Origin: Vicinamibacterales bacterium
Lineage (GTDB): Bacteria > Acidobacteriota > Vicinamibacteria > Vicinamibacterales > UBA2999
Assembly: GCA_035495795.1 (NCBI GenBank)
Contig: DATJFF010000163.1
Location: 43,114 to 107,113 of the forward strand
Length of the DNA stretch: 64,000 bases
Reading direction: 5' to 3'
Under the pieces are notes generated by a model that saw nothing but the letters and a program-made list of their open reading frames with translations, searched no databases and was not told the DNA's origin. This document shows, piece after piece, positions 1,266-17,799 of this stretch. How positions within the stretch are numbered: the stretch's first letter is position 1; every line of letters starts with the position of its first letter. The translations under genes and the position numbers were made by a program.

Positions 1266-3202
<1,937 letters not shown>

Positions 3203-3209
3203 GCGACGA

Positions 3210-3295
3210 GATCTGGTGATCTCGTGAGCTGGGGATCTGGAGATCTGATCTGGTGATCTGAGGATCTTTCGATCTATCTGGTGATCTTGTGATCT
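3210..3295 (+). repeat. tandem array of about 11 octamer units (GATCTGGT-like) carrying 10 GATC sites
   Basis: GATCT starts at 3210, 3218, 3234, 3242, 3247, 3255, 3263, 3271, 3283 and 3291, mostly 8 nt apart. The array lies between the groEL stop (3200-3202) and its terminator. Confidence 0.9.
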
Positions 3296-3296
3296 G

Positions 3297-3335
3297 GGCC
3301 CGGCGGCCTTTTGGCTGCCGGGCCTTTCTTTTTTT
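3297..3335 (+). terminator. intrinsic terminator of groESL
   Basis: GGCCCGGCGGCC-TTTT-GGCTGCCGGGCC stem-loop followed by TTTCTTTTTTT. Confidence 0.8.
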
Positions 3336-3483
3336 CCCGCTCCACCCAGCCTCAGGCGTAGTATTCCTTTCGCTCGACTCGGTGCCCTTCATTTCGCGTT
3401 GTACGGGCTGGTCGTTTCCGTTACTAGTCAGCGGGCTTTACCCTCACTCGGCGTCTTGCGGTGCTATCGGAAGGAGAACCCCT

Positions 3484-4134
3484 ATGCGACGTTTCGTGGT
3501 AACCGGAATCCTTGTCGGCCTGCTCGGTTGGATTGCCGCCGTCCCGGCTCAGGCTCAGGACAAGTCGGCACGCGGATCGGTGACCGCGGTTGGCATGGAC
3601 ACCGTCACTGTGAAGGCCGGCGCCCAGGAGCTCAAGCTCACGGTCGATGGGAAGACCGAAATCATCGCCGAAGGCGCGGGGACAGCCAACCGCGCGGCGG
3701 TTGCCAAAGGCGCCGCTGGCGCCAAGCTCGCCGATCTCGTCAAGGTCGGCGAGAATGTCGAAGTCAACTACCGCGAGGCCGGCGGCATGATGCACGCCAC
3801 CACCATCCGCAAGGTGCGTTCGACCGGTGCCGGCGGCGGCGGCGTGTCAGAACCCAAGGCGGCGACCCCGATGTCCAGCGGCACGGTGACCGCCGTGTCC
3901 GGAACCTCGCTGACCATCTCCGGCGCGAGCGGCGGTGGCGGCAAGTTCACGCAGACCTTTACGATCGACAGCGCCACCCACGTCGTCGCCGAAGGTGCCA
4001 GCACCGCCAGCGCCAAGGGCAAGGTCACCATCACCGATCTCGTGAAGAAGGACGACTCCGTCCAGGTGACCTACGTCGAGAGCGGCGGCACGCTCCGGGC
4101 CACCGAGGTCCGCAAGCGCAACACGAAGCCGTAA
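3484..4134 (+). CDS. secreted protein with two tandem ~85-aa repeats (DUF5666-like by pattern)
   Basis: ATG at 3484 is preceded by GGAAGGAG. Signal peptide MRRFVVTGILVGLLGWIAAVPAQA|Q. The internal duplication GSVTAVGMDTVTV...VEVNYRE / GTVTAVSGTSLTI...VQVTYVE is visible. Confidence 0.6.
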   Translation: MRRFVVTGILVGLLGWIAAVPAQAQDKSARGSVTAVGMDTVTVKAGAQELKLTVDGKTEIIAEGAGTANRAAVAKGAAGAKLADLVKVGENVEVNYREAGGMMHATTIRKVRSTGAGGGGVSEPKAATPMSSGTVTAVSGTSLTISGASGGGGKFTQTFTIDSATHVVAEGASTASAKGKVTITDLVKKDDSVQVTYVESGGTLRATEVRKRNTKP

Positions 4135-4160
4135 CCCGCGCGTCGGCGCGGACGACATCG

Positions 4161-4197
4161 GGCCCGGGCACGACATCGTGTTCGGGCCTTGCCTTTT
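4161..4197 (+). terminator. probable intrinsic terminator after the 3484-4134 gene
   Basis: GGCCCGGGCACG-ACAT-CGTGTTCGGGCC stem (with two G-U pairs) followed by TTGCCTTTT. Located at a convergent gene junction. Confidence 0.45.
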
Positions 4198-5282
4198 CAG
4201 GGCACGCTCGGCCGCTCGGTGGATTTCAGGAACTCCGCCAGGTACGGCCCGAACACCTGTGGCAGTGAATGCGTGCCGTGCCCGCGCGTCTCGTCGGAGA
4301 CCGGAATCAGCACGAATCTGCTGTGCGCCACCCTGCCAATCAGGTCCCGCATCATCGGCAGCTCCGGCGGGTTCACGAAGTCGTCGGCGGAGTTGATGGC
4401 CAGCAGCGGCGCCGTGATCTCGCCGAGGTGCGCCGATGGGTCGTAGTCCTCGGACGCCTGAAAATGGTAGATCGTGTCGTTTGCATCGGTCGTCTTCAGC
4501 CGCGTCTTGATCTGATCCTCCAGCCACGCGTCGGCGGCCGCGTGCGTCGGGAACTGTTTCTGCCATTGCAGCGGGACGCTCGTCGCCAGGAGCAGGAACC
4601 CGAGCGCGCTGGCCATGCCGCGCGGCGGCTCGGAGTACTCTCCGCCCTTCCAGGTCGGATCCGTGACGATTGCGTCGACCAGGAGCTTGCGCCAGACGCG
4701 ATTGCGCCCTGCCACTTCGACTGGATTGCTGGCCAGCGGCACCAGCCCGCGCGCGAACGACGGGTACATGTACCCCCACACCCACGCGTGCATCGCGCCC
4801 ATGGACGTTCCCATGATCAGCCGCAGCTCGGAGAGCCCGAGCGCCTCGGTCACCAGCTGGTGCTGTAGCCGCACCATGTCGGTGTAGCGGTATTTCGGGA
4901 AGCGCATGTGCAAGCCATCGCTCGGCTTGCTCGACTGCCCGTGCCCGATGTTGTCGGGAAGGATGATGAAGTAGCGCTCGGCATCGAGCAGCTGCCCCTT
5001 CCCGAACAGACGGCCGGCGTAGTTCTCGGACACGAACCCCCGCCCGCTGCCACCGGTGCCGTGAAGGATCATCACCGCATTGCGGACGACTCCGTCGGCG
5101 TCCTTCCGCGGCTGACCGATCGTGCGGTAGTGAATTCTGACTTCCGCGGCGCGGTCGCCGCTCTCGAACCGCACGTCGCGCGCGATGAAGTCGCGCTCCA
5201 CGGGCGGCGGGTAGCTGGCCTGCGCGACGGCCAGGGACGGAAGGGCGAGGAGAAACGCGAGCGCTTGGATGGTGCGGGTCAC
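4197..5282 (-). CDS. secreted alpha/beta-fold hydrolase/acyltransferase (MetX-like)
   Basis: Signal peptide ...LPSLAVA|QASY. GTSMG nucleophile elbow (LIMGTSMGAMHAW). Overall pattern resembles homoserine O-acetyltransferase-type alpha/beta enzymes. Lies 19 nt downstream of the carrier-protein gene. Confidence 0.75.
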   Translation of the reverse strand: MTRTIQALAFLLALPSLAVAQASYPPPVERDFIARDVRFESGDRAAEVRIHYRTIGQPRKDADGVVRNAVMILHGTGGSGRGFVSENYAGRLFGKGQLLDAERYFIILPDNIGHGQSSKPSDGLHMRFPKYRYTDMVRLQHQLVTEALGLSELRLIMGTSMGAMHAWVWGYMYPSFARGLVPLASNPVEVAGRNRVWRKLLVDAIVTDPTWKGGEYSEPPRGMASALGFLLLATSVPLQWQKQFPTHAAADAWLEDQIKTRLKTTDANDTIYHFQASEDYDPSAHLGEITAPLLAINSADDFVNPPELPMMRDLIGRVAHSRFVLIPVSDETRGHGTHSLPQVFGPYLAEFLKSTERPSVP

Positions 5283-5301
5283 GGCACGAATGTAACCCGG
5301 C

Positions 5302-5538
5302 TCAGGACTTGGGCCGCAACTCCTCCGAAAATTCCAGGATTGCTCGCATGCTGGCGAAGCGGCTGGGGGTGAACGCGTCGGTCGGGACGCGGGCGCCGGT
5401 CGTCTCTTCCACGAACAGCACCAGGTCGAACAGCGCCAGCGAATCGACGACCTCGCGGAGGTCGTCGTCGAGCGTCAGGGTGTCGCGGTATTGACGGAAG
5501 CGGCTCTTCAGGTAGCCGCGAAGCTGTGCTTCATTCAC
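5302..5538 (-). CDS. acyl/aminoacyl carrier protein (phosphopantetheine-binding, DltC-like)
   Basis: 78 aa from the GTG at 5538. Contains a DSL serine motif (VVDSLALFDLVLFVEE). Overlaps the stop of the upstream ligase gene by 8 nt. Confidence 0.7.
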   Translation of the reverse strand: MNEAQLRGYLKSRFRQYRDTLTLDDDLREVVDSLALFDLVLFVEETTGARVPTDAFTPSRFASMRAILEFSEELRPKS

Positions 5539-7009
5539 GGGGAGCTCCTCTGTCGAGCAGGTGACGCTGGATCTTGCCGGTGGCCGTCCGGGGGATACGC
5601 TCGGAGCGCACGAACCGTCGTGGAACCTTGTGGTGCGAGAGGCGCTCGGCGCAGAACGCGCCGAGCTCGACCGGGTCGAAGGCGGCACCAGGCACGACAT
5701 ACACCCAGACGACTTCACCCAGAAACGGGTGCGGCACCCCAACCGCTGCCGCGTCGGCAACGTCCGGGTGCGTCGAGACGACCGCCTCGATTTCGGCCAG
5801 GCTGATGCGCTCACCCGCCACCTTGACGATGTCCTTGGCCCGGCCGGTGATGAAGAGGCACGCGGTGCCGTCCAGGTACCCGACGTCGCCGGTATTGAGC
5901 CACCCCTTCTCGAGCACGCCTCCGGTCGCATCGGGATCTTCCCAGTAGCCCTGCATGACGTTCGGACCGTGCAGCCAGATCGCGCCTTCCGCACCGGCCG
6001 GCACGGGGTGGCCTTCACCGTCCCTGATCTCGATCGTCATCCCGGGAAGCACGCGGCCGACCGACTTCGGCTTCGCCGTCAGTTCATCATGAGGCAGGAA
6101 CGTGGCCCGCGTCGACGACTCGGTGAGGCCGTACATCGAGAAGATCGCGACGCGCGGCCACCCCTTCGCCAGCGCCTCCGTCGTCCAAACCGGCAGCGCA
6201 CCTCCTGAGGTCGTGATCGCGCGCAGGGCGCTCGGCACGGTCTCCGCCAGGTTCGATGAACGGGCCAGCATGTTCAAGTGGAACGGCACGACGCTGGCGA
6301 TGGTGCAGCCCTCTTTCGCGAGTCTGCCGAGCAACAGAGGCGCGGACCCGCTCTCCTCGATGAGCACGACTGACGCGCCGGCGGCGATCGCGGAAAGCAG
6401 GTTGCTCTTTCCGTAGGTGTGGGCCAGCGGCAAGATCAGGCCGTAGCGGTCATCCTCAGTCATCTCGAGGTACCGGCAGACTGCCTCGACGACGAACAGG
6501 ATGTTGCCGTGACTGAGTACCACCCCCTTCGGCAAGCCGGTGGTGCCCGACGTGAACACGACCGACGCGGGGGCATCGGTGCTTGGCGGAGCGACTGGCG
6601 CTCCCGCATCCGTGCCGCACTGTTCCAGGAAGGTGTCGAGCGAGAGCGTCGGGGCACCGACGACGATGCCTTCGAGATCGTCGCGGTCGGTCAGAACGAG
6701 CGCCGGCCTGACGCGATCGAGCAGGCGCGCGATGGTCTCCTTCTCCTCGCCGCGTCCGATCTCGACAGTGGTCGCACCCGCGAGCAGCGCGCCGAAGTAG
6801 GCCACGACATAGGCTGCAGAATTACCGGCGACGAACGCGACATAGGGCCGCTCGCAGGAGATAAGCGTGCCGCAGATCCGCGCTCCGGCGGCGGCCCGCG
6901 CGCCCAGTTCCTGGTAGGTCCATCGCTGTTCCCGCCAGACGAGCGCTTCCCGCGCCGGATGGCGCGCGACGGCGTCCGCGAAGAGACCGGCGATCGAGAA
7001 GCTGGTCAC
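5531..7009 (-). CDS. ANL-superfamily adenylating enzyme (AMP-dependent ligase, DltA/acyl-ACP ligase-like)
   Basis: TSGTTGLPKGV (A3), YGLTE (A5), NTGD (A7), GRAKDIVKVAGERI (A8) and PRTATGKIQR (A10) motifs. Confidence 0.9.
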   Translation of the reverse strand: MTSFSIAGLFADAVARHPAREALVWREQRWTYQELGARAAAGARICGTLISCERPYVAFVAGNSAAYVVAYFGALLAGATTVEIGRGEEKETIARLLDRVRPALVLTDRDDLEGIVVGAPTLSLDTFLEQCGTDAGAPVAPPSTDAPASVVFTSGTTGLPKGVVLSHGNILFVVEAVCRYLEMTEDDRYGLILPLAHTYGKSNLLSAIAAGASVVLIEESGSAPLLLGRLAKEGCTIASVVPFHLNMLARSSNLAETVPSALRAITTSGGALPVWTTEALAKGWPRVAIFSMYGLTESSTRATFLPHDELTAKPKSVGRVLPGMTIEIRDGEGHPVPAGAEGAIWLHGPNVMQGYWEDPDATGGVLEKGWLNTGDVGYLDGTACLFITGRAKDIVKVAGERISLAEIEAVVSTHPDVADAAAVGVPHPFLGEVVWVYVVPGAAFDPVELGAFCAERLSHHKVPRRFVRSERIPRTATGKIQRHLLDRGAPRE

Positions 7010-7022
7010 GACGACCGCGCGA

Positions 7023-8372
7023 TTACGTCAGCAATCGCGCGCAGAAACTGGCCATGCTGCTCCACGTATCGCTGGATTCCACCAGCCCGTGAAGCACGGC
7101 GTAGAAGCAGGACGTGAGCACGATTCCCATCACCGACCAGAGGCGGCTGTCTCCGAGGCCCGCGAAGCGCTCGGGAAAGCGGGTCGGCAGGGCCAGGACC
7201 GCGTATATCGCCGCAGCGTTGGCGAACCAGTAGATCAGGCCGGCGACCACGTTGGATACCGAGCTTTCGCCGGTGAGAATATCCGGCGAAATGTGCAGGA
7301 TACCGGAGGTGAGGAGCGCGCCGAACACCGCCAGGAACAGCTGCCGGTGCCGGCGCATGATCGGGAAGAACACGAACGTGATGATCCATTCCCGGGTCAG
7401 GATGTTCCAGCGCTGCCAGTGTTCATTGGGTGTCCGGGCCAGCAGCCAGTAGTTGAAGTTGCTCCGCACGCCGATTCCGAACAGCCGGACGATGCCGATG
7501 AACACGTTGAAGCGGAGCACGATGCCGCAGTAGTACGAGACGTAGTGGACGTACGAGGTCGCGAGCAGTGTGAACCCATGGACCGAGGCCAGCGGAAAGC
7601 GCGCCAGGAACCGGCTGCCGACCGATTGTGCAAATGACGCCGCGAGGGCGATATACAGGGCCCGCATGCCGGCCCAGCGCGTCGCCCGCAGGCGGTCGTC
7701 GCTCGCCGTACGCAGATCGTCGTAGGTGATTGCCGGACAGGTCACGAGACGGCACGAAATGTAGCTTGCGAACTCACGCAGCGACAACCGTCCGCGTGCC
7801 TGGCGGTGCGCCGAATACCAGAGCATCGGCATCAGCACCGGCCAACCGCCCAGGAAGACATCGACGGCGTCACCGGGCAGCAGCCGCGCCATCAGCACCG
7901 TGCACACCAGGCAGAAGCCGGCGACGACGAACGACAGCCGCAAGGGCGAAAGTGGAAGCTGCAGCAGCAGGTAGGTAGTGCCGACCACCGCCGCAATCGG
8001 GAGGGCGGATGGCGCATCGAGGCCGCCGTCGAGAACCGCGAATGGGAGGACCATCAGCGCGAGCAGCTTCAGCCGCACTTCGGTGGTCGAGAAGAACGTC
8101 AGGAGGAATGCAGCCAGCGCGATGGGAACAATCGGCGACAGGTGCGGGAGGCCGGCCAGCACCGGCCTTGGTTCGGGGTGCTGGAGCATGTAACCGCCCA
8201 GATACCGCGCGAGCAGCCAGAAGCGCGGTTCGAGGACGATGATGCCGATGGCGGCGAGCCCGAACCAGAGGAATTCCGAATCCTGGATGCGGGTGGACAG
8301 CGAGGCCGCGGCAGCGAACGCTGCTACGGGCCGGCGCTGGGAGATCGCTTCCGATGACTGCACAGACTGCAC
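7023..8372 (-). CDS. MBOAT-family membrane-bound O-acyltransferase (DltB/AlgI-like)
   Basis: Polytopic 449-aa protein. RSNFNYWLLARTPNEHWQRWNILTREW matches the MBOAT P-NF-N..A.S..EFW.RW(H/N) block. A conserved His follows 37 aa later (SGILHIS). GTG start. Confidence 0.75.
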   Translation of the reverse strand: MQSVQSSEAISQRRPVAAFAAAASLSTRIQDSEFLWFGLAAIGIIVLEPRFWLLARYLGGYMLQHPEPRPVLAGLPHLSPIVPIALAAFLLTFFSTTEVRLKLLALMVLPFAVLDGGLDAPSALPIAAVVGTTYLLLQLPLSPLRLSFVVAGFCLVCTVLMARLLPGDAVDVFLGGWPVLMPMLWYSAHRQARGRLSLREFASYISCRLVTCPAITYDDLRTASDDRLRATRWAGMRALYIALAASFAQSVGSRFLARFPLASVHGFTLLATSYVHYVSYYCGIVLRFNVFIGIVRLFGIGVRSNFNYWLLARTPNEHWQRWNILTREWIITFVFFPIMRRHRQLFLAVFGALLTSGILHISPDILTGESSVSNVVAGLIYWFANAAAIYAVLALPTRFPERFAGLGDSRLWSVMGIVLTSCFYAVLHGLVESSDTWSSMASFCARLLT

Positions 8373-8581
8373 GCTGCGAGGAATCCTTCCCCGGGTCAGG
8401 CAAAGCGGGTTCCGCCGCGGTCGGGAACCGTTCGTCTGGCTTAAGTCACTGAGAAAATTGGGGTTATCTCAGGGTTTGCCGGATCGTGAAACGTCGGGTT
8501 GGAGCCCGGAAGTCAACCTCCGCGGCGATTGTTGTCGGCACATTTGTGTGATTCGGGCCTGAGGCGAGCACCTGACTACCC

Positions 8582-9355
8582 TCAAAAAGTCACACGAAAC
8601 AGCTTCGGCCAGAGCTTGCCGGTAATCAGGAACGTCCGATCGGCCGGGTCGTAGGCGATCCCGTTCAGGACGTCGGCGCCGAGCCGCTCGGCGGGCTGCA
8701 GCAAACCTGCCGCGTCGATTCTCGCGGTCACGCGGCCGGTCTGCATATCGATGCGGACGATCGTGTCCGTCGTCCAGACATTCGCGTAGACATCGGTGCC
8801 GACACACTCGAGCTCGTTCAGCCGCGGCAGCGGGCGGCCGTTCTCGGTCACCTGAACGGTCCGAGTGACCGCGAACGTGCCCGGATCGCGCACCGTCAAG
8901 CTGTCGCCGCCGTTGCTCATGACGAGCGACCGGCCATCGTGGCAGAGGCCCCAACCCTCACCTTGGTACGCCATCTCTCCGACGCGGTTGAACGTGTTCT
9001 TGTCGTAGACGAAGACGCGGCCGTGTTGCCAGGTGAGCTGGAAGAGGCGGTTCCCGACGTCGGCGAGACCCTCCGCGAAGTAGGGAGCGTCGACTGGTAC
9101 TTGCTGCTTCACTGCCCCGCTCACCAGATCGACCTTGCGAAGCGAGGAGCGGCCGACCAGGCCCGTGCTCTCGTAGAGGATGCCGTCGCGCCAGATGAGG
9201 CCCTGCGTGAAGGCCTGGACATCGTGCGGGTAGGTCCGGAGGACCCTCACCTTGAGGATGGCAGGCGTCACCGCATTCGTTTGCGCGAGCGAGCCGCCGG
9301 AGGGCGCGCCGGCGAGCACCGCGGCGACAACGAGAAGCGAACCAGCTGCGCGCAT
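8582..9355 (-). CDS. glutaminyl-peptide cyclotransferase, plant-type (beta-propeller) QC
   Basis: YPHDVQAFTQGLIWRDGILYESTGLVGRSSLRKVDL, GEGWGLCHDG and NELECVGTDVYANVW are signature blocks of type-I glutamine cyclotransferase. Signal peptide ...GGSLA|QTNA. Confidence 0.85.
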   Translation of the reverse strand: MRAAGSLLVVAAVLAGAPSGGSLAQTNAVTPAILKVRVLRTYPHDVQAFTQGLIWRDGILYESTGLVGRSSLRKVDLVSGAVKQQVPVDAPYFAEGLADVGNRLFQLTWQHGRVFVYDKNTFNRVGEMAYQGEGWGLCHDGRSLVMSNGGDSLTVRDPGTFAVTRTVQVTENGRPLPRLNELECVGTDVYANVWTTDTIVRIDMQTGRVTARIDAAGLLQPAERLGADVLNGIAYDPADRTFLITGKLWPKLFRVTF

Positions 9356-9382
9356 CGCGCGAATCTCACCGGGTTCCGCGGC

Positions 9383-10267
9383 TCAGCGGAGCGTGAACGT
9401 CAGCTCGATGGTGATGATCACGGGAACCGGCTGGCCCTGGCGCATGCCGGGAGAGAAGCGCCAATTGCGAGCCGCCTTGATCGCTTCCTGGTCGAGCCCG
9501 AAGATCGGATCCAGCGACTTGGTGACCTTCACCTCACCCACCGAGCCGTCTGGCATCACGATGCACTCGAGCCACACCGAGCCCTGGACCTTGGCGCGCA
9601 TCGCATCCGCGGTGTATTGCGGCTTCACCTCGCGCAGGACGCGAGGCAAGGTGATCCCGGCGCCAGGCCGGAAAGCGCCGCCGCCGGTGCCGCCGCCGTA
9701 GCCGGGCCCGAGGCCGCTTCCGGTGCCAGGGCCGCTTCCGCTGCCGGTACCGGTTCCCGCTCCCCCTCCCGTCCCGGAGCCCTGCGATTCGCTTACGGGC
9801 GTCTCGCTGAGGATGGCACCGGGCAGCTGCTGTTCTGCCGCAGCCATGTTGACGACGGGCAGGTTCATGGCCGGCAGAGGCTCGGGCTCCTCCACTTTGG
9901 GGGGCGTCGGCGCCGGCTTCTTCTCGACCGGAACCGTGATCTTCTCCTTGCCAGGCACCTCAGCAGGACGGGGGGGCTCGGGGCGCTTGTTGCCGCCGCC
10001 ACCGCCACCACCACCCGGCCCTTCAATCGGCAGGAAGACAAGTCGATCGACCTTCAGTTCGGGCTGAGGCTCGAAGACCCTTGGCTCCGGCCGATACTGA
10101 ATCACCAGGATGGCGATCAGCACCATGATCGCGTGCGCGCCGACCGAGGCACCCGCGCCCACCCGCGACTGACGCTCCTCGAGCGAGAAGTGAATGTCGA
10201 TCGGGCGGTCCGGCCGGACGTGGAGCGGCCCTTCCGCTGCGGGCGTCGCGATGGTCGGGTCAGCCAT
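9383..10267 (-). CDS. tonB: energy transducer TonB
   Basis: N-terminal TM anchor, Pro/Gly-rich spacer (PEPPRPAEVPGKEK...) and a C-terminal TonB-C domain (PQYTADAMRAKVQGSVWLECIVMPDGSV...AARNWRFSPG). Confidence 0.8.
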   Translation of the reverse strand: MADPTIATPAAEGPLHVRPDRPIDIHFSLEERQSRVGAGASVGAHAIMVLIAILVIQYRPEPRVFEPQPELKVDRLVFLPIEGPGGGGGGGGNKRPEPPRPAEVPGKEKITVPVEKKPAPTPPKVEEPEPLPAMNLPVVNMAAAEQQLPGAILSETPVSESQGSGTGGGAGTGTGSGSGPGTGSGLGPGYGGGTGGGAFRPGAGITLPRVLREVKPQYTADAMRAKVQGSVWLECIVMPDGSVGEVKVTKSLDPIFGLDQEAIKAARNWRFSPGMRQGQPVPVIITIELTFTLR

Positions 10268-10371
10268 CAGAACAGTGGTCCCACGGCCATTGTGACCGAG
10301 CGATCTGGCACAAACAAGTGCAAAGCCAGCGCCATGCCGTTTTGACGCCTCAGGTGTACATCCGGCTTCGG

Positions 10372-10380
10372 TGCTACAAT
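10372..10380 (+). promoter_or_regulatory. extended -10 promoter element TGcTACAAT upstream of tatA
   Basis: TGCTACAAT lies 47 nt upstream of the tatA ATG. It is part of a 15-mer also found upstream of the ECF sigma gene. Confidence 0.35.
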
Positions 10381-10426
10381 TTGCGTTGAGGTGGCCGCCC
10401 GCCGTCCTCGAGGAGACTCGCTCACC

Positions 10427-10597
10427 ATGGAGGTCCTAGCCTTGTTCGGACCAATCGGCCTGCCAGAGATGTTGATCATCCTGGCGATCGTCATTCTCAT
10501 CTTCGGCGCCAATCGCCTTCCCGAGCTCGGTCGCGGAATCGGAGCCGGGATCAAGAACTTCAAGTCCTCCATCAAGGACGGTGAGAAGTCCGAGTAA
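10427..10597 (+). CDS. tatA: twin-arginine translocase subunit TatA/E
   Basis: MEVLALFGPIGLPEMLIILAIVILIFGANRLPELGRGIGAGIKNFK is canonical TatA. ATG at 10427 is preceded by GAGGAG. Confidence 0.85.
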   Translation: MEVLALFGPIGLPEMLIILAIVILIFGANRLPELGRGIGAGIKNFKSSIKDGEKSE

Positions 10598-10600
10598 CGC

Positions 10601-12499
10601 CTAGAGCAGCACCCGGGAGTCACCGACTCTCCGCGTGACTCGCTCGCGATCGAGAAACTCCAGCAACGGGATCGCATACTTGCGGGTGATGCCGTAGCGA
10701 TCCTTGAACTGGGCGACGTCAATTCGCACCACCCCGCCCGCGCCCTCGGCCTTGAGGGTCGCCATCTCTCCCTTCAACCGATCCAGCGCCTCCCTGTGCA
10801 CGACCAGGGTATCGAGCCGGACCAGCGTCTTCTGTCGTACCAGGTAGGCCGTCGCGGCCTCGGTCACGTCCGGGGATACGCCGGCGCGCTCCGCGATTGC
10901 CGCGCGGTCGGGCGGCGTCAGGCCGGCCTCGCGATACGCCTCGGCAACCTTTGCCACCGTCTCCTCTCCGCCGGGGAGCGATGCCTTGTGCGAAGGCAGC
11001 GCCAGCCGCTCGCGATCCACGATGGCCTTGGCCACCACGAGCCGGCGCATGGCCGCTTCGAAAATCGCCGGTTCGACTCCCGTGAACACGCGAGCGCGCG
11101 CTTCTTCCCTGGGCAGCCCTTCGCTGATCGGCTGCTGTTCGTGGAATGTCCCGACCAGGCGAAGCACGGCATCGCCGGCCGCCGCGATGGCCGGCGCGGC
11201 CACCAGCAAGTCTCCGACTTGAATCACGGTTCCCAGCCGCTGGAGAGCGGCAACTCTCTCGCCGACTTGCGCCGGGCGAATGCCGGCCCGGGCGACGGCG
11301 TCGCTGACCGGCACCCCACGGAGGCCGCGGTCCCGGATCATCGCCCCGAACGCTGCCGCCGAATCGGCCCCTTGCAGCTCGCGCAGCCGGCCCAGGCCCG
11401 CGGCACTGCGGATGCGCGGCACGGTCGGCGCTGGATCGAGGACGGTCGCCGCGCCAATCGTGAACGGCGGCGAATAGCTGCGGAGGATGACACGATCGCC
11501 ACGCGTCAGCACGGCCGGCTCCTCCAGCCGCAGGCGCGCGAGGGCGCGGCCGCCGCTTTCGATCGCCGGCGCATCGGCTCCGGCAATCGAGATCCGCGCG
11601 AGCACCTCCGCTGTCCCGTGATGGACCCGAACCCGCGCGCCATGGCGGAGCGGTCGTGTCGAGGGCAGCAACTCGATCTCCACGTCTGCCCGCCGCGTGA
11701 CTGCGAGCGTTTGCGGTGCGGCCAGCGTCTGGCCGCGACGGACATCGGCCGCGTCGATGCCCCCAAGGTTGATGGCGGTTCGCTGGCCGGCCGCGACCCT
11801 GTCGCGCGACTGTCCGTGCACCTGGATACCCCTTACCTTCGCCGCCTGGCTTCCCGGCAACAGCGCGAATTCCTCGCCGACGCCAATCTGCCCGCCGACG
11901 AGTGTCCCGGTTACGACGGTGCCGAACCCCTTCATCGTGAAGACGCGGTCGATGGGCAGCCGCACGGCGCCGGCTACCGGCCGCTCGTCAACGCGGGCCG
12001 CAGCCGCTTCGAGCACGCCTCGGAGCTGGTCCAACCCCTCGCCGGTCCGCGCCGACACCTGGACGATCGGTTTGTTCTCGAGGAACGAGCCGCGCACCAG
12101 GTCCGCGACCTCGAGCGCGACCAGCGCCCGCGTGTCATCGTCGGCCGCGTCCTGCTTGGTGATCACCACGCAGCCGTCGGACACGCGGAGCAGGCGGCAA
12201 ATGTCGAAATGCTCGCGGGTCTGCGGCATCACGCTCTCGTCGGCGGCGACGATCAGCATCACGAAGTCCACGCCGCCGACGCCGGCGAGCATCGTGCGGA
12301 CGAACTTTTCATGTCCCGGGACGTCGACGAACGCGACCTGCGCCTCGCCGATTGTCGCGTGCGCGAAGCCAAGCTCGATGGTGATGCCGCGCGCCTTCTC
12401 TTCCTTGAGTCGATCGGGATCGATGCCGGTGAGTGCGTGAACCAGCGTGCTCTTGCCGTGATCGATGTGCCCGGCGGTGCCGACGACGAGGCGAGTCAT
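10601..12499 (-). CDS. selB: selenocysteine-specific translation elongation factor SelB
   Basis: [46 protein letters not shown]-domain. 632 aa with C-terminal winged-helix repeats. Confidence 0.9.
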
Positions 12500-14592
12500 C
12501 GCTTCTTGCGGAACGCCCGCTCCTTCTTCCCAGGACGCTGCGCGCCCCGTCGCGGGCGCTTCACGGTCGTGCGCGGGCGCGCCTCGCGCCGTGGCCGGGC
12601 GGCGCGCACCTTGCGCCCAAGCGGCGCCTCACGCGGCGCGTCGAGCACCTGCTCCACCGCCAGGTCGATCATCCGGCGTTCGAGGTCCACCCGCGCGATG
12701 CGCACCCGCACGTGCTCGCCGAGCCGGTAGATTCGGCCGCCCCGCTCGCCGACCAGCGTGTGCGCCCCTTCGGTGAACCGGTAGTAGTCGTCGGCAAGCG
12801 TCGAGATATGCGCCAGGCCCTCCACGTAATGATCGACGAGCTCGACGAACAGCCCGAACGGCGCGACGCCGGTGATGTAGCCGTCGAAGCTCTCGCCGAC
12901 CTTGTCGGCCATGAACCGCACCTTCTTCCACTGCAGCAGCTCGCGTTCCGCCTCGTCGGCGCGCCGCTCGCGCTCGGAGGTGTGCCGGCCGACCTCCGGC
13001 AGGGACAATTCCAGCGCTTCGCGCCGCTCCTCCGTCACCCGCGTGTGCTGCAACTCGCGGAGCAGCCGATGAACGACCAGATCGGGATAGCGACGGATGG
13101 GGGACGTGAAATGGGTGTAGCTGGCCGCGGCGAGTCCGAAGTGACCCATGTTCACCGAGTCGTAGCGCGCCTTCTGCATCGTCCTCAGCATGAGGAAGGC
13201 GATTGGCCGCTCGACCGGCGTGCCGCGGATCTTCTCGACCAGCGCCTGGAAATGCCGCGGCGTCGGGCCGCCGTCGGGCGCGTTCAGCGAGTAGCCGAGC
13301 GTGCGGATGAAGGCCTCGAACTCCTCGACCTTCAGCGGGTCGGGCTGCTCGTGGATGCGGTAGAGCGACGGCATGCGTGCGTCTTCGAGGTGGCTCGCCA
13401 CCGTCTCGTTAGCGAGCAGCATGAACTCCTCGATCAGCCGGTGGGCAACGTTCCGCTCCGAGGCAATGATGTCTGCGACCAACCCCTCGGTATCCAGGAT
13501 CACCTGAGGTTCCGGAAGGTCGAAGTCGACCGATCCACGCCGGCGACGGGATTGGTTGAGGACCGCGAACAGATCTGCCATCAGCTCGAAGGCCGGGACG
13601 AGCGGCGCGTAGCGCTCGCGAAGCTCCTCGTCGCCCGTCAGGATGGCGTTGACGGAGGTGTAGGTCATGCGCTCGGTGCTGCGAATCACGCCATCGTGGA
13701 TCTCGTGCCTGACGACGTCACCATGCGGCGTCACTTCCATCAGACAGGACTGGACGAGCCGGTCTACGTGCGGCTTGAGGGAACAGAGTCCCGTGGCCAG
13801 CGCCTCGGGAAACATGTGGACGGCGCGCTCGGGAAAGTACACCGACGTGCCGCGCTCGTATGCCTCGCGATCGAGCGCGCTTCCCTCTTTCACGTAGTGC
13901 GACACGTCGGCAATGTGGACGCCCAGCCAGTAATGACCGTTCGGCAGGCGCTCGATCGAGATCGCGTCGTCGAAATCGCGCGCGTGCTCGCCGTCGATTG
14001 TGACCACGATGCGATCGCGAAAATCGGTTCGGCCCTTGATGTCGGCTGGACGCACGGCGGGGCCGATGCGCTCGGCTTCGGCGATCGCTTCGGCGCCGTG
14101 TCCGTCCGGGATGTCGTGCTTGTGCACGATGATCGCGGTGTCTACGCCGGGATCCTCGAGACGGCCGAGCACTTCACTGACCGCGCCCTGCGCCGGCTGT
14201 CCCGCCGCGGCGTGGCGCGTGACCTCGACGACGACCATCTGCCCCGGCTCGGCGTTCGCGATATCGCGGCGCCCGATCAGGACATCGTCCATGCTGCGGC
14301 GGTCGAACGGGACGACATAGCCCTGGCCGACGCGGTCGCGCTCGAAGCGCCCGACGATCTGGCGTGGCGGAGGCGCGCTCGGCCGCGGCGGCCGGCGGCC
14401 CTGCTCGCGCGGCAGCGCGTACAACTGGCCTCGCACGAGCACGAGCGATCCATCGGATAGAAGTTGTCGAAGCGCCCGTTTGGCGCCGGCGCGCTCAAGG
14501 CGCGGAACGCGGAGGAGGCGGAGGATTTCGTCGGCCCGCGCGGGCCGGGAGAGCCGATCCCGTAATCGGGTCAGCAGTTCAGACTTGTTCAC
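12496..14592 (-). CDS. rnr: ribonuclease R
   Basis: RNB catalytic core (DFDDAISIERLPNGHYWLGVHIADVSHYV, FTSPIRRYPDLVVHR), an S1 domain and a basic C-terminal tail. Start set to the GTG at 14592, giving a GTGA overlap with the upstream stop. Confidence 0.9.
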   Translation of the reverse strand: MNKSELLTRLRDRLSRPARADEILRLLRVPRLERAGAKRALRQLLSDGSLVLVRGQLYALPREQGRRPPRPSAPPPRQIVGRFERDRVGQGYVVPFDRRSMDDVLIGRRDIANAEPGQMVVVEVTRHAAAGQPAQGAVSEVLGRLEDPGVDTAIIVHKHDIPDGHGAEAIAEAERIGPAVRPADIKGRTDFRDRIVVTIDGEHARDFDDAISIERLPNGHYWLGVHIADVSHYVKEGSALDREAYERGTSVYFPERAVHMFPEALATGLCSLKPHVDRLVQSCLMEVTPHGDVVRHEIHDGVIRSTERMTYTSVNAILTGDEELRERYAPLVPAFELMADLFAVLNQSRRRRGSVDFDLPEPQVILDTEGLVADIIASERNVAHRLIEEFMLLANETVASHLEDARMPSLYRIHEQPDPLKVEEFEAFIRTLGYSLNAPDGGPTPRHFQALVEKIRGTPVERPIAFLMLRTMQKARYDSVNMGHFGLAAASYTHFTSPIRRYPDLVVHRLLRELQHTRVTEERREALELSLPEVGRHTSERERRADEAERELLQWKKVRFMADKVGESFDGYITGVAPFGLFVELVDHYVEGLAHISTLADDYYRFTEGAHTLVGERGGRIYRLGEHVRVRIARVDLERRMIDLAVEQVLDAPREAPLGRKVRAARPRREARPRTTVKRPRRGAQRPGKKERAFRKKR

Positions 14593-15860
14593 TGGTTCAC
14601 TAATAACACTTGCAGGTCGCCGACGTTGGTGTCGGTGCGGCCCGTCCGCACGGTATCGCCGAGCGGACTGAAGAAATGGAAGGAGTCGTTGCGCGCCAGC
14701 ACGTCGGCCGGTGACGGCAGGCCGCGCGCCGCGGCGCGGGCCAGCGATTGCGCATCGACCCACGCCCCGGCGACATCGGTGAGCCCGTCGATCCCATCGG
14801 TGCCAATACTTGCTGCGACCGCATCGGGCACAGCGCGCATCGGTTCGACGAGCGCCAACGCGAACTCGAGATTTCGTCCGCCGACTCCGTCGGCACGCAC
14901 GGTGACGGTGGTCTCGCCAGACGAAAGCACGCAGACCGGCCCGCGGTGCCGGCGGGCGTCGGCGATGGCTGCCGCGAGCCAGGCTGGCGCGGCATCACGC
15001 GCTTCCCCGGTAATGCGCTCGGAGAGCATCGCCACGTGGTAGCCCTTGGCGTGCGCCGCCGCGGCCGCGGCTGACACCGCATCGGCTGCGCGGCCGACCA
15101 CGAATCCAGCGGCTCGCGCCAGCCGCTGATCGCCGGGCTTCGGCGTATCGGGGATGCGGCCGGCGAGCCCATCGTCGATCCGCGCGCGGAGAGCGGACGG
15201 GAGCCGGGCTGCGACATCGCGTGCCGCGAGCGCATCCGCGACGTCCTGCCATGTCGACGCGTCAGGCCAGCCGGGCCCGGATCCGATGACGCCGAGGTCA
15301 TCGCCCACGACGTCCGAGAGCGCCAGCGTCGTCGTCAGGCCTGGACAGGCTGCCGCGAGCCAGCCGCCTTTGACCAGCGACAGATGCTTGCGGAGCGCGT
15401 TCAACTGATGGATGTCGGCGCCAGCCAGCATGAAGGCCCGCGTCGCGGCCTGTTTGTCCTCGAACCCGAGCCCCTCGGCGGCTTCGGCCATCAGCGCCGA
15501 TGCCCCGCCGGAGACCAGCATCACGAGGTGCTCGTCCGGACCGACGGCCCGGGCCCGCCGCAACGCTTCGCGCGCCGCCTCACGGCTGCGCGCGTCGGGA
15601 AACGGATGACTGCCGGCGATGAAGTCGAGTGTCGCCGGCATGCCCGCCACGGGGTGGGAACCTATAGCCAGCGCCGTCTTCACTCTCAGCGCGGGTAACG
15701 CCATCAGTGCCGTGGCCATTGCCGGTGCGGCTTTGCCTGCGGCGACCATGTGCAGGGGTCCCTGCACGAGCCTCTCCCGTGCCGCGGGCAGTTGCCACGC
15801 GCGCGCGACGACACGGCTCGCCGACACGCCATCCAGGGCGGCGCGAATCACGTCGTGCAA
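14589..15860 (-). CDS. glycerate 2-kinase / hydroxypyruvate reductase family protein (DUF4147 + MOFRL)
   Basis: 423 aa. GKAAPAMA and GGETTV-like (SSGETTVTV) blocks, and a GTDGIDG motif typical of MOFRL glycerate kinases. Confidence 0.75.
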   Translation of the reverse strand: MHDVIRAALDGVSASRVVARAWQLPAARERLVQGPLHMVAAGKAAPAMATALMALPALRVKTALAIGSHPVAGMPATLDFIAGSHPFPDARSREAAREALRRARAVGPDEHLVMLVSGGASALMAEAAEGLGFEDKQAATRAFMLAGADIHQLNALRKHLSLVKGGWLAAACPGLTTTLALSDVVGDDLGVIGSGPGWPDASTWQDVADALAARDVAARLPSALRARIDDGLAGRIPDTPKPGDQRLARAAGFVVGRAADAVSAAAAAAHAKGYHVAMLSERITGEARDAAPAWLAAAIADARRHRGPVCVLSSGETTVTVRADGVGGRNLEFALALVEPMRAVPDAVAASIGTDGIDGLTDVAGAWVDAQSLARAAARGLPSPADVLARNDSFHFFSPLGDTVRTGRTDTNVGDLQVLLVNQ

Positions 15861-15880
15861 ATCAGTTGTAAGGGCTGGGG

Positions 15881-16204
15881 TCAGTGGACTTTGAGGGGGT
15901 CGGACCAGGCAGAAAGCCCGGTGACGACGTCGAACTCGCGGAGGAGCCGGGCCATCACTTGATCGGCGTCGGCCTTGACCGAGAGTTGTTCGAGGTCGGC
16001 CATGACGCGCTGGAGCGCCCGTTCGACCCCGCAGATGGCCTGCTCGGAAAAGTACTCACGCTGTTCCTGCAGGCACTGGTGATGTTTGAGAAATTCTTCG
16101 CGGTAGAACTCGATGAGGGCGGGCGAAATGAGCGGCGTAGATGCAGTGATCGCCGCGCGACGGTCGGTGAGGAAGTTCGGGACGCGGTTCCGTACCCTCG
16201 GCAT
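15881..16204 (-). CDS. hypothetical protein
   Basis: 107-aa ORF with high third-position GC in this frame, sitting in a same-strand gene chain. No recognisable motif. Confidence 0.5.
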   Translation of the reverse strand: MPRVRNRVPNFLTDRRAAITASTPLISPALIEFYREEFLKHHQCLQEQREYFSEQAICGVERALQRVMADLEQLSVKADADQVMARLLREFDVVTGLSAWSDPLKVH

Positions 16205-16243
16205 GTCCGACCCGACCAGTGTAAAGAGTTTGTTAAGCTCTTG

Positions 16244-17134
16244 TCAACGGGCTGCACGCGAGGCGATGACACCGGCGAGAGCGCCTACCGCCAGCCCCGC
16301 GAGTGTCAGCAGCAGAACCTGGGATACCCCGAGGAAGTCGACTGTTCCCCCTGACAGCACCCCCACCGCCGCGCCGCCTAACCACCCCTGAAAGAGCCAG
16401 AAGCCGATCCGGAGCGCAACCAGCGCGACAATCGCCCCGATGCCGCCGAGCAGCAGCCCTTCGATGATGAATGGCCCGCGAATGAAGCCGAGCGGGGCAC
16501 CGACGAGCTGCATGATGTCGAGCTCGTCGCGCCTGGCGTGCAGCGAAAGGCGAACCACGGCCGTCACGGTGAAAGCGGCGCCGAGCAGGAGCACCACAGT
16601 GACCGCAAAACCGGCGGCGCGGATTCCGGCGATGAGCGACAACACCCGCTCGAGCCAGCGCCGATCGAACTGCACGTCGGCAACCCCGTCGAGGGGCGTC
16701 ACGGCCTCGGAGAGGGCCGCAGCGGTGTCGGCCACGCGCGGTCCCGCTTGCAGCCGCACCTCGAACGACGCCGGGAATGGATTGGTGCCGACGGTCGTGC
16801 TGACGTCTGCCAGCTCGGGGAAGTCGGTTCTGAATCTCTCGAGCGCTGCTTCCTTCGAGAGGTAGTCCACGCTCTGCACACCGGCGTCGCCGGACAGCCG
16901 TGTCCGCACCGCCTCGCGTTCCACCTCCTGGATGTCGTCGCGCAGGAACACGGAGAATTCGGCCGACTCCATCCATTGGCGGACGAATTGCTGCAGGTTG
17001 GTGGTGACGAGGAGGAACCCGCCGAGGGCCAGGAAGGCGATGGCAATCGTCCCCACCGACATGATCGCGCCGCGCCCGCCGCGAATCAGGCTGGCGCGAG
17101 CCTCCTCGAATGCGAAGGCGAGGAGGCCCTTCAC
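16244..17134 (-). CDS. ftsX: cell division permease-like protein FtsX
   Basis: GTG at 17134 overlaps the ftsE stop (GTGA). 4-TM FtsX topology with a periplasmic loop. Confidence 0.85.
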   Translation of the reverse strand: MKGLLAFAFEEARASLIRGGRGAIMSVGTIAIAFLALGGFLLVTTNLQQFVRQWMESAEFSVFLRDDIQEVEREAVRTRLSGDAGVQSVDYLSKEAALERFRTDFPELADVSTTVGTNPFPASFEVRLQAGPRVADTAAALSEAVTPLDGVADVQFDRRWLERVLSLIAGIRAAGFAVTVVLLLGAAFTVTAVVRLSLHARRDELDIMQLVGAPLGFIRGPFIIEGLLLGGIGAIVALVALRIGFWLFQGWLGGAAVGVLSGGTVDFLGVSQVLLLTLAGLAVGALAGVIASRAAR

Positions 17135-17799
17135 GCGTGCTTCTCTCCGGTGTCGAGCCGGCCGTGCTCGAGATGGATGCTCCGCTTGCCGATGAAGCGG
17201 ATCAGCTCGGGGTTGTGCGTCGCGACGAGCACGGTGGTCCCGCGCAGGTTGATGTCGCGGAACAGCTTCATGATCTCGATCGACAGGTCGGGATCGAGAT
17301 TGCCGGTCGGCTCGTCGGCGAGGATGAGTTGCGGGTCGTTGACCAGCGCGCGGGCGATCGCGATTCGCTGCTGCTCGCCGCCCGAGAGCTCGGGCGGGAA
17401 GGCTTGCAGGCGATGCTGCAGCCCCACCCACTTCATCACCTGATACGTGCGGCGGCGCTGCTGATCGATCGGGATGCCGAGGACGCGCAGCGCGAACGAC
17501 ACGTTGTCGAACACGGTCTTGGTGGGAATCAGCTTGAAGTCCAGGAACACGAACCCCACCGTGCGCCTGTAGGCCTGGACTTCAGCCGGAGCGAGGCGGG
17601 CGAGGTTGCGTCCGGCCACGACCACGTCCCCTTCGGTCGGGCGCTCCTGGCGCAGCAGCAGCCTGAAGAGCGTCGTCTTGCCGGCGCCGCTCGCGCCGGT
17701 GAGGAAGACGAACTCGCCTTTGTCGATGGTCAGCGTCAGGTTGCGAAGCGCGTAGAACCCCCCGCCGTACGCCTTGCTGAGGTTCTGTGTTTCGATCAC
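17131..17799 (-). CDS. ftsE: cell division ATP-binding protein FtsE
   Basis: Walker A GASGAGKTT, signature LSGGEQQR and Walker [26 protein letters not shown] start. Confidence 0.9.
   Translation of the reverse strand: MIETQNLSKAYGGGFYALRNLTLTIDKGEFVFLTGASGAGKTTLFRLLLRQERPTEGDVVVAGRNLARLAPAEVQAYRRTVGFVFLDFKLIPTKTVFDNVSFALRVLGIPIDQQRRRTYQVMKWVGLQHRLQAFPPELSGGEQQRIAIARALVNDPQLILADEPTGNLDPDLSIEIMKLFRDINLRGTTVLVATHNPELIRFIGKRSIHLEHGRLDTGEKHA

Follow-up and report, generated by a model that had tools for sequence, protein, structure and literature searches.

The DNA analysed in this study, referred to as the window, is a stretch of 64,000 nucleotides from a Vicinamibacterales bacterium of the phylum Acidobacteriota. 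A cassette of three genes, encoding an MBOAT-fold membrane acyltransferase, an adenylate-forming ligase of the ANL superfamily and a small carrier protein, was found at 5301-8585 on the minus strand, where it forms an insertion with the glutaminyl cyclase gene on one side and the alpha/beta hydrolase gene on the other, in an acidobacterium of the Vicinamibacterales type. We consider it moderately probable that this cassette was acquired horizontally and carries out carrier-protein-dependent O-acylation of an envelope glycan. The insertion was delimited by comparison with two relatives that lack the three genes (the trio): a 207-kb metagenome contig (L038) and a Vicinamibacterales metagenome-assembled genome (MAG; L039). 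The features of the locus are as follows.

5301-8585, minus strand: inserted cassette of 3,285 bp (leader, MBOAT, ligase and carrier), from blastn against L038 and the gene tables of L038 and L039
8373-8585, minus strand: non-coding leader of 213 nt that arrived with the cassette; presumed promoter region
7023-8372, minus strand: MBOAT-fold membrane acyltransferase, 449 aa, with invariant N323, H360 and Y424
5531-7009, minus strand: ANL adenylate-forming ligase, 492 aa, with all catalytic motifs intact and the alpha-amino-binding Asp absent
5302-5538, minus strand: carrier protein, 78 aa, with the predicted phosphopantetheine Ser33 in an invariant V-D-S-L motif
5283-5303, minus strand: relic of the ancestral glutaminyl cyclase 3' end, CGGGTTACATTCGTGCCGTGA, encoding RVTFVP and a stop, from sequence comparison with L038 8950-9030
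4197-5282, minus strand: secreted MetX-like alpha/beta hydrolase (PRK06489 family), 361 aa; not a member of the cassette
8582-9355, minus strand: glutaminyl cyclase (Pfam Glu_cyclase_2, 326 bits; synteny with L038 and L039)
9383-10267, minus strand: TonB (Pfam TonB_C, 65 bits; synteny with L038 and L039)
4160-4189, strand not assigned: GC-rich hairpin between the convergent hydrolase and DUF5666 genes, from a terminator scan scored on the plus strand only

The four open reading frames (ORFs) on the minus strand, in a region of about 66-67% GC, were found at the positions given to them in an earlier reading made from the DNA letters (the sequence-only reading). The junctions also agreed: a gap of 13 nt between the MBOAT and ligase genes, an overlap of 8 nt between the ligase stop and the carrier start, and a gap of 19 nt between the carrier and hydrolase genes. 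The GC content at third codon positions (GC3) of the three large ORFs was 0.83-0.88, which is typical for the real genes of the window. The families to which that reading had assigned the four proteins were upheld by profile searches.

The gene order in both L038 and L039 was found to be ABC/FtsX, glycerate kinase-like, RNase R, SelB, TatA, TonB, glutaminyl cyclase and hydrolase, followed by the convergent GroEL/GroES genes and then SAICAR synthase. The window contained the same order except for the trio. Upstream of the trio, glutaminyl cyclase and then TonB were present on the same strand, and the region downstream of the hydrolase contained a convergent DUF5666 gene followed by GroES and GroEL. 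By this synteny, the host would be an acidobacterium of the Vicinamibacterales. In blastn, window 8586-17589 corresponded to L038 2-8994 and window 4225-5300 to L038 8983-10058, and 5301-8585 had no counterpart in L038 (blastn) or in L039 (gene table). In L038, the cyclase stop overlapped the GTG start of the hydrolase (…CGGGTTACATTCGTGCCGTGATT…). The cyclase-end string, CGGGTTACATTCGTGCCGTGA, was kept in the window as non-coding DNA directly upstream of the hydrolase start, and the cyclase gene of the window terminated in its own RVTF and stop. Because the cyclase relic lies there, the 19-nt carrier/hydrolase junction is, by sequence comparison, mostly relic and an insertion scar. On the same comparison, the trio was gained by the lineage of the window and not lost by the relatives, the cyclase relic arguing against an ancestral trio, and the hydrolase is an older neighbour at the site that does not belong to the trio system.

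The insertion borders were found to contain neither terminal direct or inverted repeats beyond chance level nor mobility genes. A target-site duplication was considered, and the duplicated cyclase 3' end (the RVTF codons) matched at about 8 of 12 nt by visual count; it was not called. In a neighbour-joining tree, the window ligase grouped with the Longimicrobiales-type loci L001, L019 and L020 and not with the acidobacterial clade, a grouping which, in a simple distance tree, is consistent with inter-phylum transfer. The terminator scan predicted no terminator-like site within 5283-8585, and the first hairpin was that at 4160-4189, which presumably also terminates the minus-strand transcript. 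The hydrolase is probably still transcribed by read-through from the cassette, and its operon-like look is explained by this probable read-through, since no terminator was predicted inside the cassette. The scan for a sigma-70 consensus in the leader gave no match, and an Rfam scan of 3000-10500 gave no match to a riboswitch or other RNA motif.

A second indel was found beside the hydrolase gene. The segment 3247-4224 of the window, 978 bp long, corresponded to only 75 bp in L038 and held the DUF5666 gene (3289-4134, plus strand) and hairpins at 3296-3325 and 4160-4189. This segment was absent from L039 and present in L040, a further fragment of the window's own species. The flanks of the hydrolase gene look like a local hotspot of gene gain.

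In our study, 37 loci were collected and then searched with the window proteins. The MBOAT, ligase and carrier genes lay side by side at 23 distinct loci, spread over four phyla or more, including Gemmatimonadota (Longimicrobiales), Acidobacteriota, Planctomycetota/Phycisphaerae and a 'Deltaproteobacteria' MAG, and four further loci carried the MBOAT and ligase genes up to the contig end. The usual order was MBOAT, ligase and carrier; the order ligase, carrier and MBOAT was found in two planctomycete lineages. The single exception to the linkage was L013, which holds a second paralogue of the MBOAT; a full trio is present elsewhere in that MAG. The trio is co-conserved far beyond chance. The sequence-only reading had proposed a cluster of four genes, and of this the trio stood and the hydrolase did not: it adjoined none of the 23 other trio loci and was older at its site. 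Among the collected loci, the hydrolase, cyclase and TonB genes were found only at L018, which together with L040 represents same-species fragments of 94.6-98% identity. The MAG with the two MBOAT paralogues was the Planctomycetota MAG JAUXGE01, with the full trio at L004/L014 and the other paralogue at L013; the latter had no ligase within 10 kb and a carrier-like ORF nearby at 6877-7191.

The MBOAT family is very small: at 90% identity, 65 of its clusters were found among 5.8 billion. Outside this species, the closest relative was at most 51% identical, and 46% among the near-full-length matches. When 1.84 billion representatives were searched exhaustively with the family profile, about 20 full-length MBOAT clusters (50% identity) reached 319 bits or more, and the scores of other MBOATs dropped abruptly, to at most 90 bits. 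In the GTDB set with one genome per species, only 13 MBOAT loci were found, all of them in MAGs (Acidobacteriota, Planctomycetota/Phycisphaerae and a 'Deltaproteobacteria' bin); Longimicrobiales (Gemmatimonadota) was added to the family by named protein matches. The two nearest outgroup MBOATs examined, P0216 and P0213, scored 90 bits or less against the family profile, had no NCBIfam match and had the RW(N/S)…H pattern in common. In their loci (L041 3729-8252 and L042 1-7573), the gene of an AMP-binding ligase and ORFs of about 80 aa that resemble carriers were present beside the MBOAT gene, and L041 also had an SDR/KR gene. This sample of two outgroups hints at a wider carrier-fed MBOAT assemblage beyond Dlt and the present family. 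In the literature, of which the full-text coverage was incomplete, no paper was found in which, apart from Dlt, an MBOAT is described together with an ANL ligase and a carrier.

The MBOAT protein scored 35.3 bits against Pfam MBOAT (PF03062), above the gathering threshold of 27; most members of the family score below the Pfam threshold in precomputed annotations. An AlphaFold model built from the 21-sequence family alignment had a mean confidence (pLDDT) of 79.5 and a pTM of 0.80. The lowest confidence, pLDDT 32-38, was found over residues 305-341, the stretch of the YWLLARTPNEHWQRWN motif containing N323, and this likely stems from the shallow alignment of 21 sequences. When the model was searched against the PDB with Foldseek, ranks 1-13 were all MBOATs, with DltB (8jem) at the top (template modelling score 0.53-0.59), followed by PORCN, HHAT, LPCAT3, ACAT2 and DGAT1; the fold scores of PORCN and LPCAT3 nearly equalled that of DltB. 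A PDB search with the family profile gave weak DGAT1 matches only, and DltB was visible solely through the fold search. Residues 292-360 were aligned without gaps to residues 347-415 of human DGAT1, where N323 corresponded to N378 and H360 to the catalytic H415; H360 also aligned with His447 of plant DGAT1 (an H447A mutant entry). Both N323 and H360 were invariant in the 21 family sequences, and the motif YWLLARTPNEHWQRWNILxREW was invariant or near-invariant in the family alignment. The MBOAT fold was present, and so was an invariant His with an Asn partner 37 residues upstream, inside the span of about 35-47 residues at which MBOATs have an Asn, Asp or His partner. The active pair is His289/His336 in DltB and Asn/His in DGAT1, ACAT1 and PORCN (PMC11035591). 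With Asn at the position of DltB His289, the family therefore carries the eukaryote-type pair and not that of DltB. The C-terminus of the family was ...Y(x)xRL(x), in which the only invariant late Tyr was Y424, within 'FYxxL' of the last transmembrane helix. Judged by eye from the modelled helix boundaries and the loop charges, Y424 would lie in the outer half of this helix.

The ligase was found to be a complete ANL enzyme, with 239.6 bits to Pfam AMP-binding and 66 bits to AMP-binding_C, and contained the N- and C-domains, the A3 P-loop TSGTTGxPKG, the A8 hinge and the A10 Lys that define the superfamily. Its best PDB match was MenE (5e-55), and DltA was matched only at 1e-35; MenE and the oxalate-, fatty-acyl- and 4-coumarate-CoA ligases were the best PDB and NCBIfam matches. 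Among 26 orthologues, the motif PLxH(T/S)Y(G/A)K, the P-loop and the A10 Lys were invariant, and the amino-binding acidic residue (PheA Asp235, in FDxS) was replaced by Gly or Ala. In pairwise alignments, the window 'PLAHTYG' paired with 'PLFHISG' of MenE, and Gly occupied the position of the Asp in FD(x)S of nonribosomal peptide synthetases (NRPS). Because the amino-binding Asp is absent, an alpha-amino acid bound in the DltA/NRPS way, D-alanine included, is unlikely as the substrate. The enzyme resembles an acyl/aryl ligase more than DltA by these matches and motifs, as the sequence-only reading had suspected. The score against the exosortase-A-associated acyl-CoA ligase model TIGR03098 was 245.9 bits, well under its cut-off of 592, and the NCBIfam and PDB searches gave no close characterised homologue.

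The window carrier alone had no Pfam match and only weak matches to AsbD/AmcB in NCBIfam and to PigG in the PDB. The profile of its 16-member family matched the PigG peptidyl carrier protein at 2.6e-10, DltC (6bug/8jf2) at about 5e-8 (4.5e-8) and also PltL. Pfam PP-binding (PF00550) was matched by 11 of the 16 members, and V31-D32-S33 was invariant in the profile. Carrier proteins of the PP-binding type are four-helix proteins of about 80 aa in which the Ser of a (D/H)S(L/I) motif is conserved where helix 2 begins; the window protein is placed among them, and phosphopantetheinylation is predicted.

Among the bacterial MBOAT pathways characterised so far, only Dlt draws on a carrier protein (PMC12148441). 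The cassette was found to share with the Dlt pathway of Firmicutes (DltA/DltC/DltB with DltX and DltD) the route from an adenylating enzyme through a small carrier to a DltB-fold MBOAT, and the tight linkage of the three genes. The window also contained an RND efflux set (OEP, HlyD and AcrB) and a TonB-dependent receptor in addition to TonB, and the host is therefore confirmed as a diderm; the view that the first three genes follow a DltB/DltA/DltC-like logic in a diderm acidobacterium was borne out. The differences from Dlt were several. The MBOAT scored 20.3 bits against the DltB equivalog TIGR04091, of which the cut-off is 375, and had the pair Asn/His instead of His/His; the ligase lacked the D-Ala amino-binding Asp; and the hosts were diderms, with the trio in a polysaccharide cluster or in no such context. 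A small DltX-like ORF, for which the sequence-only reading had advised a search of 8373-8581, was not found, the sole minus-strand ORF of the leader (8373-8585, ORF scan) being 35 aa long and not hydrophobic. No hydrophobic ORF of 25-90 aa with an FxYxxF-like end was found near any trio, in the leader (8373-8581) or at the 37 loci. DltD, a membrane-anchored SGNH-like protein, was not encoded in the window. The cassette thus fails all the tests of Dlt membership that were run: the DltB model, the His/His pair, DltX, DltD and the DltA Asp.

The PatA/PatB, AlgI/AlgJ/AlgX and WssH-type systems resemble the present family in pairing an MBOAT with a membrane-anchored or periplasmic SGNH/AlgX-like protein in polysaccharide loci (here L001, L002, L019, L020 and L023). 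However, these non-Dlt systems use acetyl-CoA, with neither ligase nor carrier protein, and a C-terminal FxYxxF Tyr shuttle on two extra transmembrane helices (PMC12148441), whereas the cassette family, about as large as DltB, does not have this motif and was always found with ligase and carrier. The same motif scan detected a C-terminus of the AlgI/PatA type, FMYAQF, in the distant MBOAT of L037, which served as a positive control. With no acyl-shuttle motif and with a ligase and carrier present, the cassette is therefore not a PatA/AlgI-type acetylation system. The eukaryotic lipid MBOATs (DGAT1, ACAT and LPLAT) have in common with the family the Asn...His pair 37 residues apart and a W-x-x-W-N motif; they differ in using acyl-CoA and not a carrier protein, with an overall identity of about 13-16%, and nothing observed here indicates a lipid as the acceptor. 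In AlmEFG of Vibrio cholerae, a DltA-like ligase and a carrier protein also feed an envelope acyltransferase in a diderm. AlmG, however, is a LABLAT-family lipid A acyltransferase at the cytoplasmic face and not an MBOAT, and the substrate is glycine.

The gene neighbourhoods of the related loci were found to point to a glycan. In the Longimicrobiales-type loci L001, L019 and L020/L021, the trio was present beside Wzy_C, PQQ-type GSDH, AsnB-like amidotransferase and glycosyltransferase genes, together with GDSL/ALGX-like proteins with an N-terminal transmembrane helix. The delta-type locus contained glycosyltransferases and a GDSL protein, and the planctomycete locus AsnB, NAD synthase, Wzy_C and a Polysacc_synt flippase. 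SGNH neighbours were found at only five related loci (L001, L002, L019, L020 and L023). The context of the trio in the relatives follows the MBOAT-SGNH pattern of polymer acylation (PMC12148441), and where a candidate extracytoplasmic partner is present it is an SGNH/AlgX-like protein anchored in the membrane, as in known MBOAT pathways. Extra genes for acyl handling surround the trio in L001 (2993-11799). An acyl-CoA dehydrogenase gene lies directly upstream of that of the MBOAT and a second AMP-ligase gene downstream, and another PP-binding protein and a protein of 859 aa, part of which is SGNH-like, are also encoded; these possibly tailor the carrier-bound acyl group.

In about 10 acidobacterial loci (beside an ACIII-like respiratory complex) and in the window (beside TonB and cyclase), the trio was present alone among unrelated genes. 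In the acidobacterial locus L010, of which the DNA is 71% GC, the upstream genes were on the other strand (GC3 filter) and encoded the unrelated ACIII-like complex. A Cys-rich putative lipoprotein of about 140-170 aa, with a lipobox-like 'LACG', an internal repeat and no Pfam match, was found 3' of the trio in acidobacterial loci (L007, L009-L012, L015-L017, L031 and L034; for example L011 13169-13687), often followed by a PD40/TolB-like propeller. These two were considered as universal partners of the trio and rejected, being a matter of lineage synteny and absent from the window.

In the mechanism that we favour, the ANL ligase would first adenylate a carboxylic acid without an alpha-amino group and thioesterify it to the phosphopantetheine arm on Ser33 of the carrier. 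This loading step is proposed because of the intact motifs, the gene overlap and the homology. The acyl-carrier would then dock at the cytoplasmic face of the MBOAT, as DltC does at DltB, and H360 with N323 would carry the acyl group across to the periplasmic side; this step is proposed because the fold is DltB-like, the catalytic pair is conserved and the three genes are strictly linked. Finally, the acyl group would become an ester on an envelope glycan, exopolysaccharide or O-antigen-like polymer, a step proposed because of the gene neighbourhoods only. In the related loci this would proceed probably through the membrane-anchored SGNH/AlgX-type transferase encoded beside the trio, and in this genome through a partner encoded elsewhere or by direct transfer from the MBOAT.

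Several observations weigh against O-acylation of a glycan. The 64-kb window contained no polysaccharide genes and no SGNH gene, and the acidobacterial and planctomycete loci had no SGNH neighbour detectable at the sensitivity of tblastn. The alignment and the motif scan showed the C-terminal FxYxxF motif to be absent from the family, and all characterised bacterial MBOAT-SGNH systems use DltX or an FxYxxF acyl shuttle (PMC12148441). The catalytic pair was Asn/His, 37 residues apart, as in DGAT1, a lipid acyltransferase, which also gave the only significant PDB sequence matches. The AlphaFold model was unreliable over 305-341, the most conserved motif of the family, and everything beyond the three-gene linkage is inference.

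Many of the same observations suit a second explanation, in which the MBOAT, like DGAT1, ACAT or LPLAT, would transfer the acyl group from the carrier directly to an acceptor within the membrane (a lipid, lysolipid, lipid A or core, hopanoid or lipid-linked sugar) and would need neither an SGNH partner nor an acyl shuttle. Asn323 and His360 at the DGAT1 spacing (residue roles from PMC11035591), the DGAT1 sequence matches and the lack of both DltX and the FxYxxF motif agree with it, as does the occurrence of the trio without polysaccharide or SGNH genes in the window and the approximately 10 acidobacterial loci; the bare three-gene insertion suggests self-sufficiency. However, the top structural match was DltB, though PORCN and LPCAT3 were nearly level, and the trio was found inside polysaccharide clusters, by Wzy_C and SGNH genes, in Gemmatimonadota, Planctomycetota and the delta-type loci. 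The 492-aa ligase, without an FAAL-type insertion, gives no support for a long-chain substrate. Direct acylation of a lipid or glycolipid is therefore regarded as possible and, on balance, doubtful. A more novel proposal, to which we give similarly low credence, is that the cassette represents the first example of a self-sufficient, carrier-fed bacterial MBOAT which, with neither an SGNH partner nor the known Tyr shuttle, directly esterifies a membrane-embedded acceptor (a lipid, lipid A or core, or a lipid-linked glycan) with an unusual non-amino acyl group; such an enzyme would bridge DltB and the eukaryotic DGAT/LPLAT enzymes in mechanism and would move between phyla as a three-gene module. 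In a variant of this proposal, the invariant Y424 may be a built-in acyl-shuttle Tyr of a new type.

The third explanation was that of the sequence-only reading, in which the four genes form one system and the secreted MetX-like hydrolase is the terminal extracytoplasmic transferase in place of DltD. Enzymes of the MetX type do act as acyltransferases, by way of an acyl-Ser intermediate, which counts in its favour. The hydrolase contained a GTSMG elbow and an N-terminal signal-peptide-like sequence (read by eye), and the same strand, the 19-nt gap and the lack of a predicted terminator before 4160-4189 make co-transcription likely. It was, however, a full-length member of NCBIfam NF005071/PRK06489 (499.7 bits against a cut-off of 305), and its score against MetX TIGR01392 was 102.5 bits, under the cut-off of 500. 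Its family is huge, with at least 7,999 matches at E<=1e-40, of which the best 120 were all 74-98% identical and, among those named, included Vicinamibacterales; by comparison, the MBOAT has only distant relatives. The neighbourhood survey, in which all 23 other trio loci lacked the hydrolase, showed that the four genes are not co-conserved, and in the trio-free relatives the hydrolase directly follows the cyclase with an overlapping stop and start; the 19-nt gap is itself cyclase relic. By this synteny, the four-gene system is already largely refuted and is held to be very unlikely.

Loci related to Dlt occur in Bordetella (dra) and in some enterobacteria that are pathogens of plants and insects. 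A genuine Dlt orthologue like these, which would attach D-alanine to a polymer of the envelope and for which the same three-component logic, the match of the carrier profile to DltC and the top rank of DltB in the fold search speak, is nevertheless highly improbable here, given the score far under TIGR04091, Asn in place of DltB His289 (PMC11035591), a ligase nearer to MenE and acyl-CoA ligases than to DltA and without the amino-binding Asp, and the lack of both DltX and DltD.

Among the syntenic neighbours, the gene of the selenocysteine elongation factor SelB was found at 10601-12499 of the window and at the corresponding place in L038 and L039; its conservation implies selenoprotein use in this Vicinamibacterales lineage.

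By the tests run here, the cassette is a rare, mobile, Dlt-like module that is new relative to the Dlt and PatA/AlgI types. Carrier-fed logic like that of Dlt was found in a separate and very rare MBOAT clade of diderm soil and freshwater phyla, with a ligase unlike the amino-acid activators. The insertion also sets sister genomes that carry the cassette against others that lack it, which makes for a clean natural comparison. If O-acylation of an envelope glycan is the true function, the cassette would represent a new type of envelope or exopolysaccharide acylation, with a group other than acetyl or D-alanyl, and a compact three-gene module by which such acylation is installed. It would also be a natural case on which to test whether all bacterial MBOATs depend on the DltX/FxYxxF acyl-shuttle mechanism.

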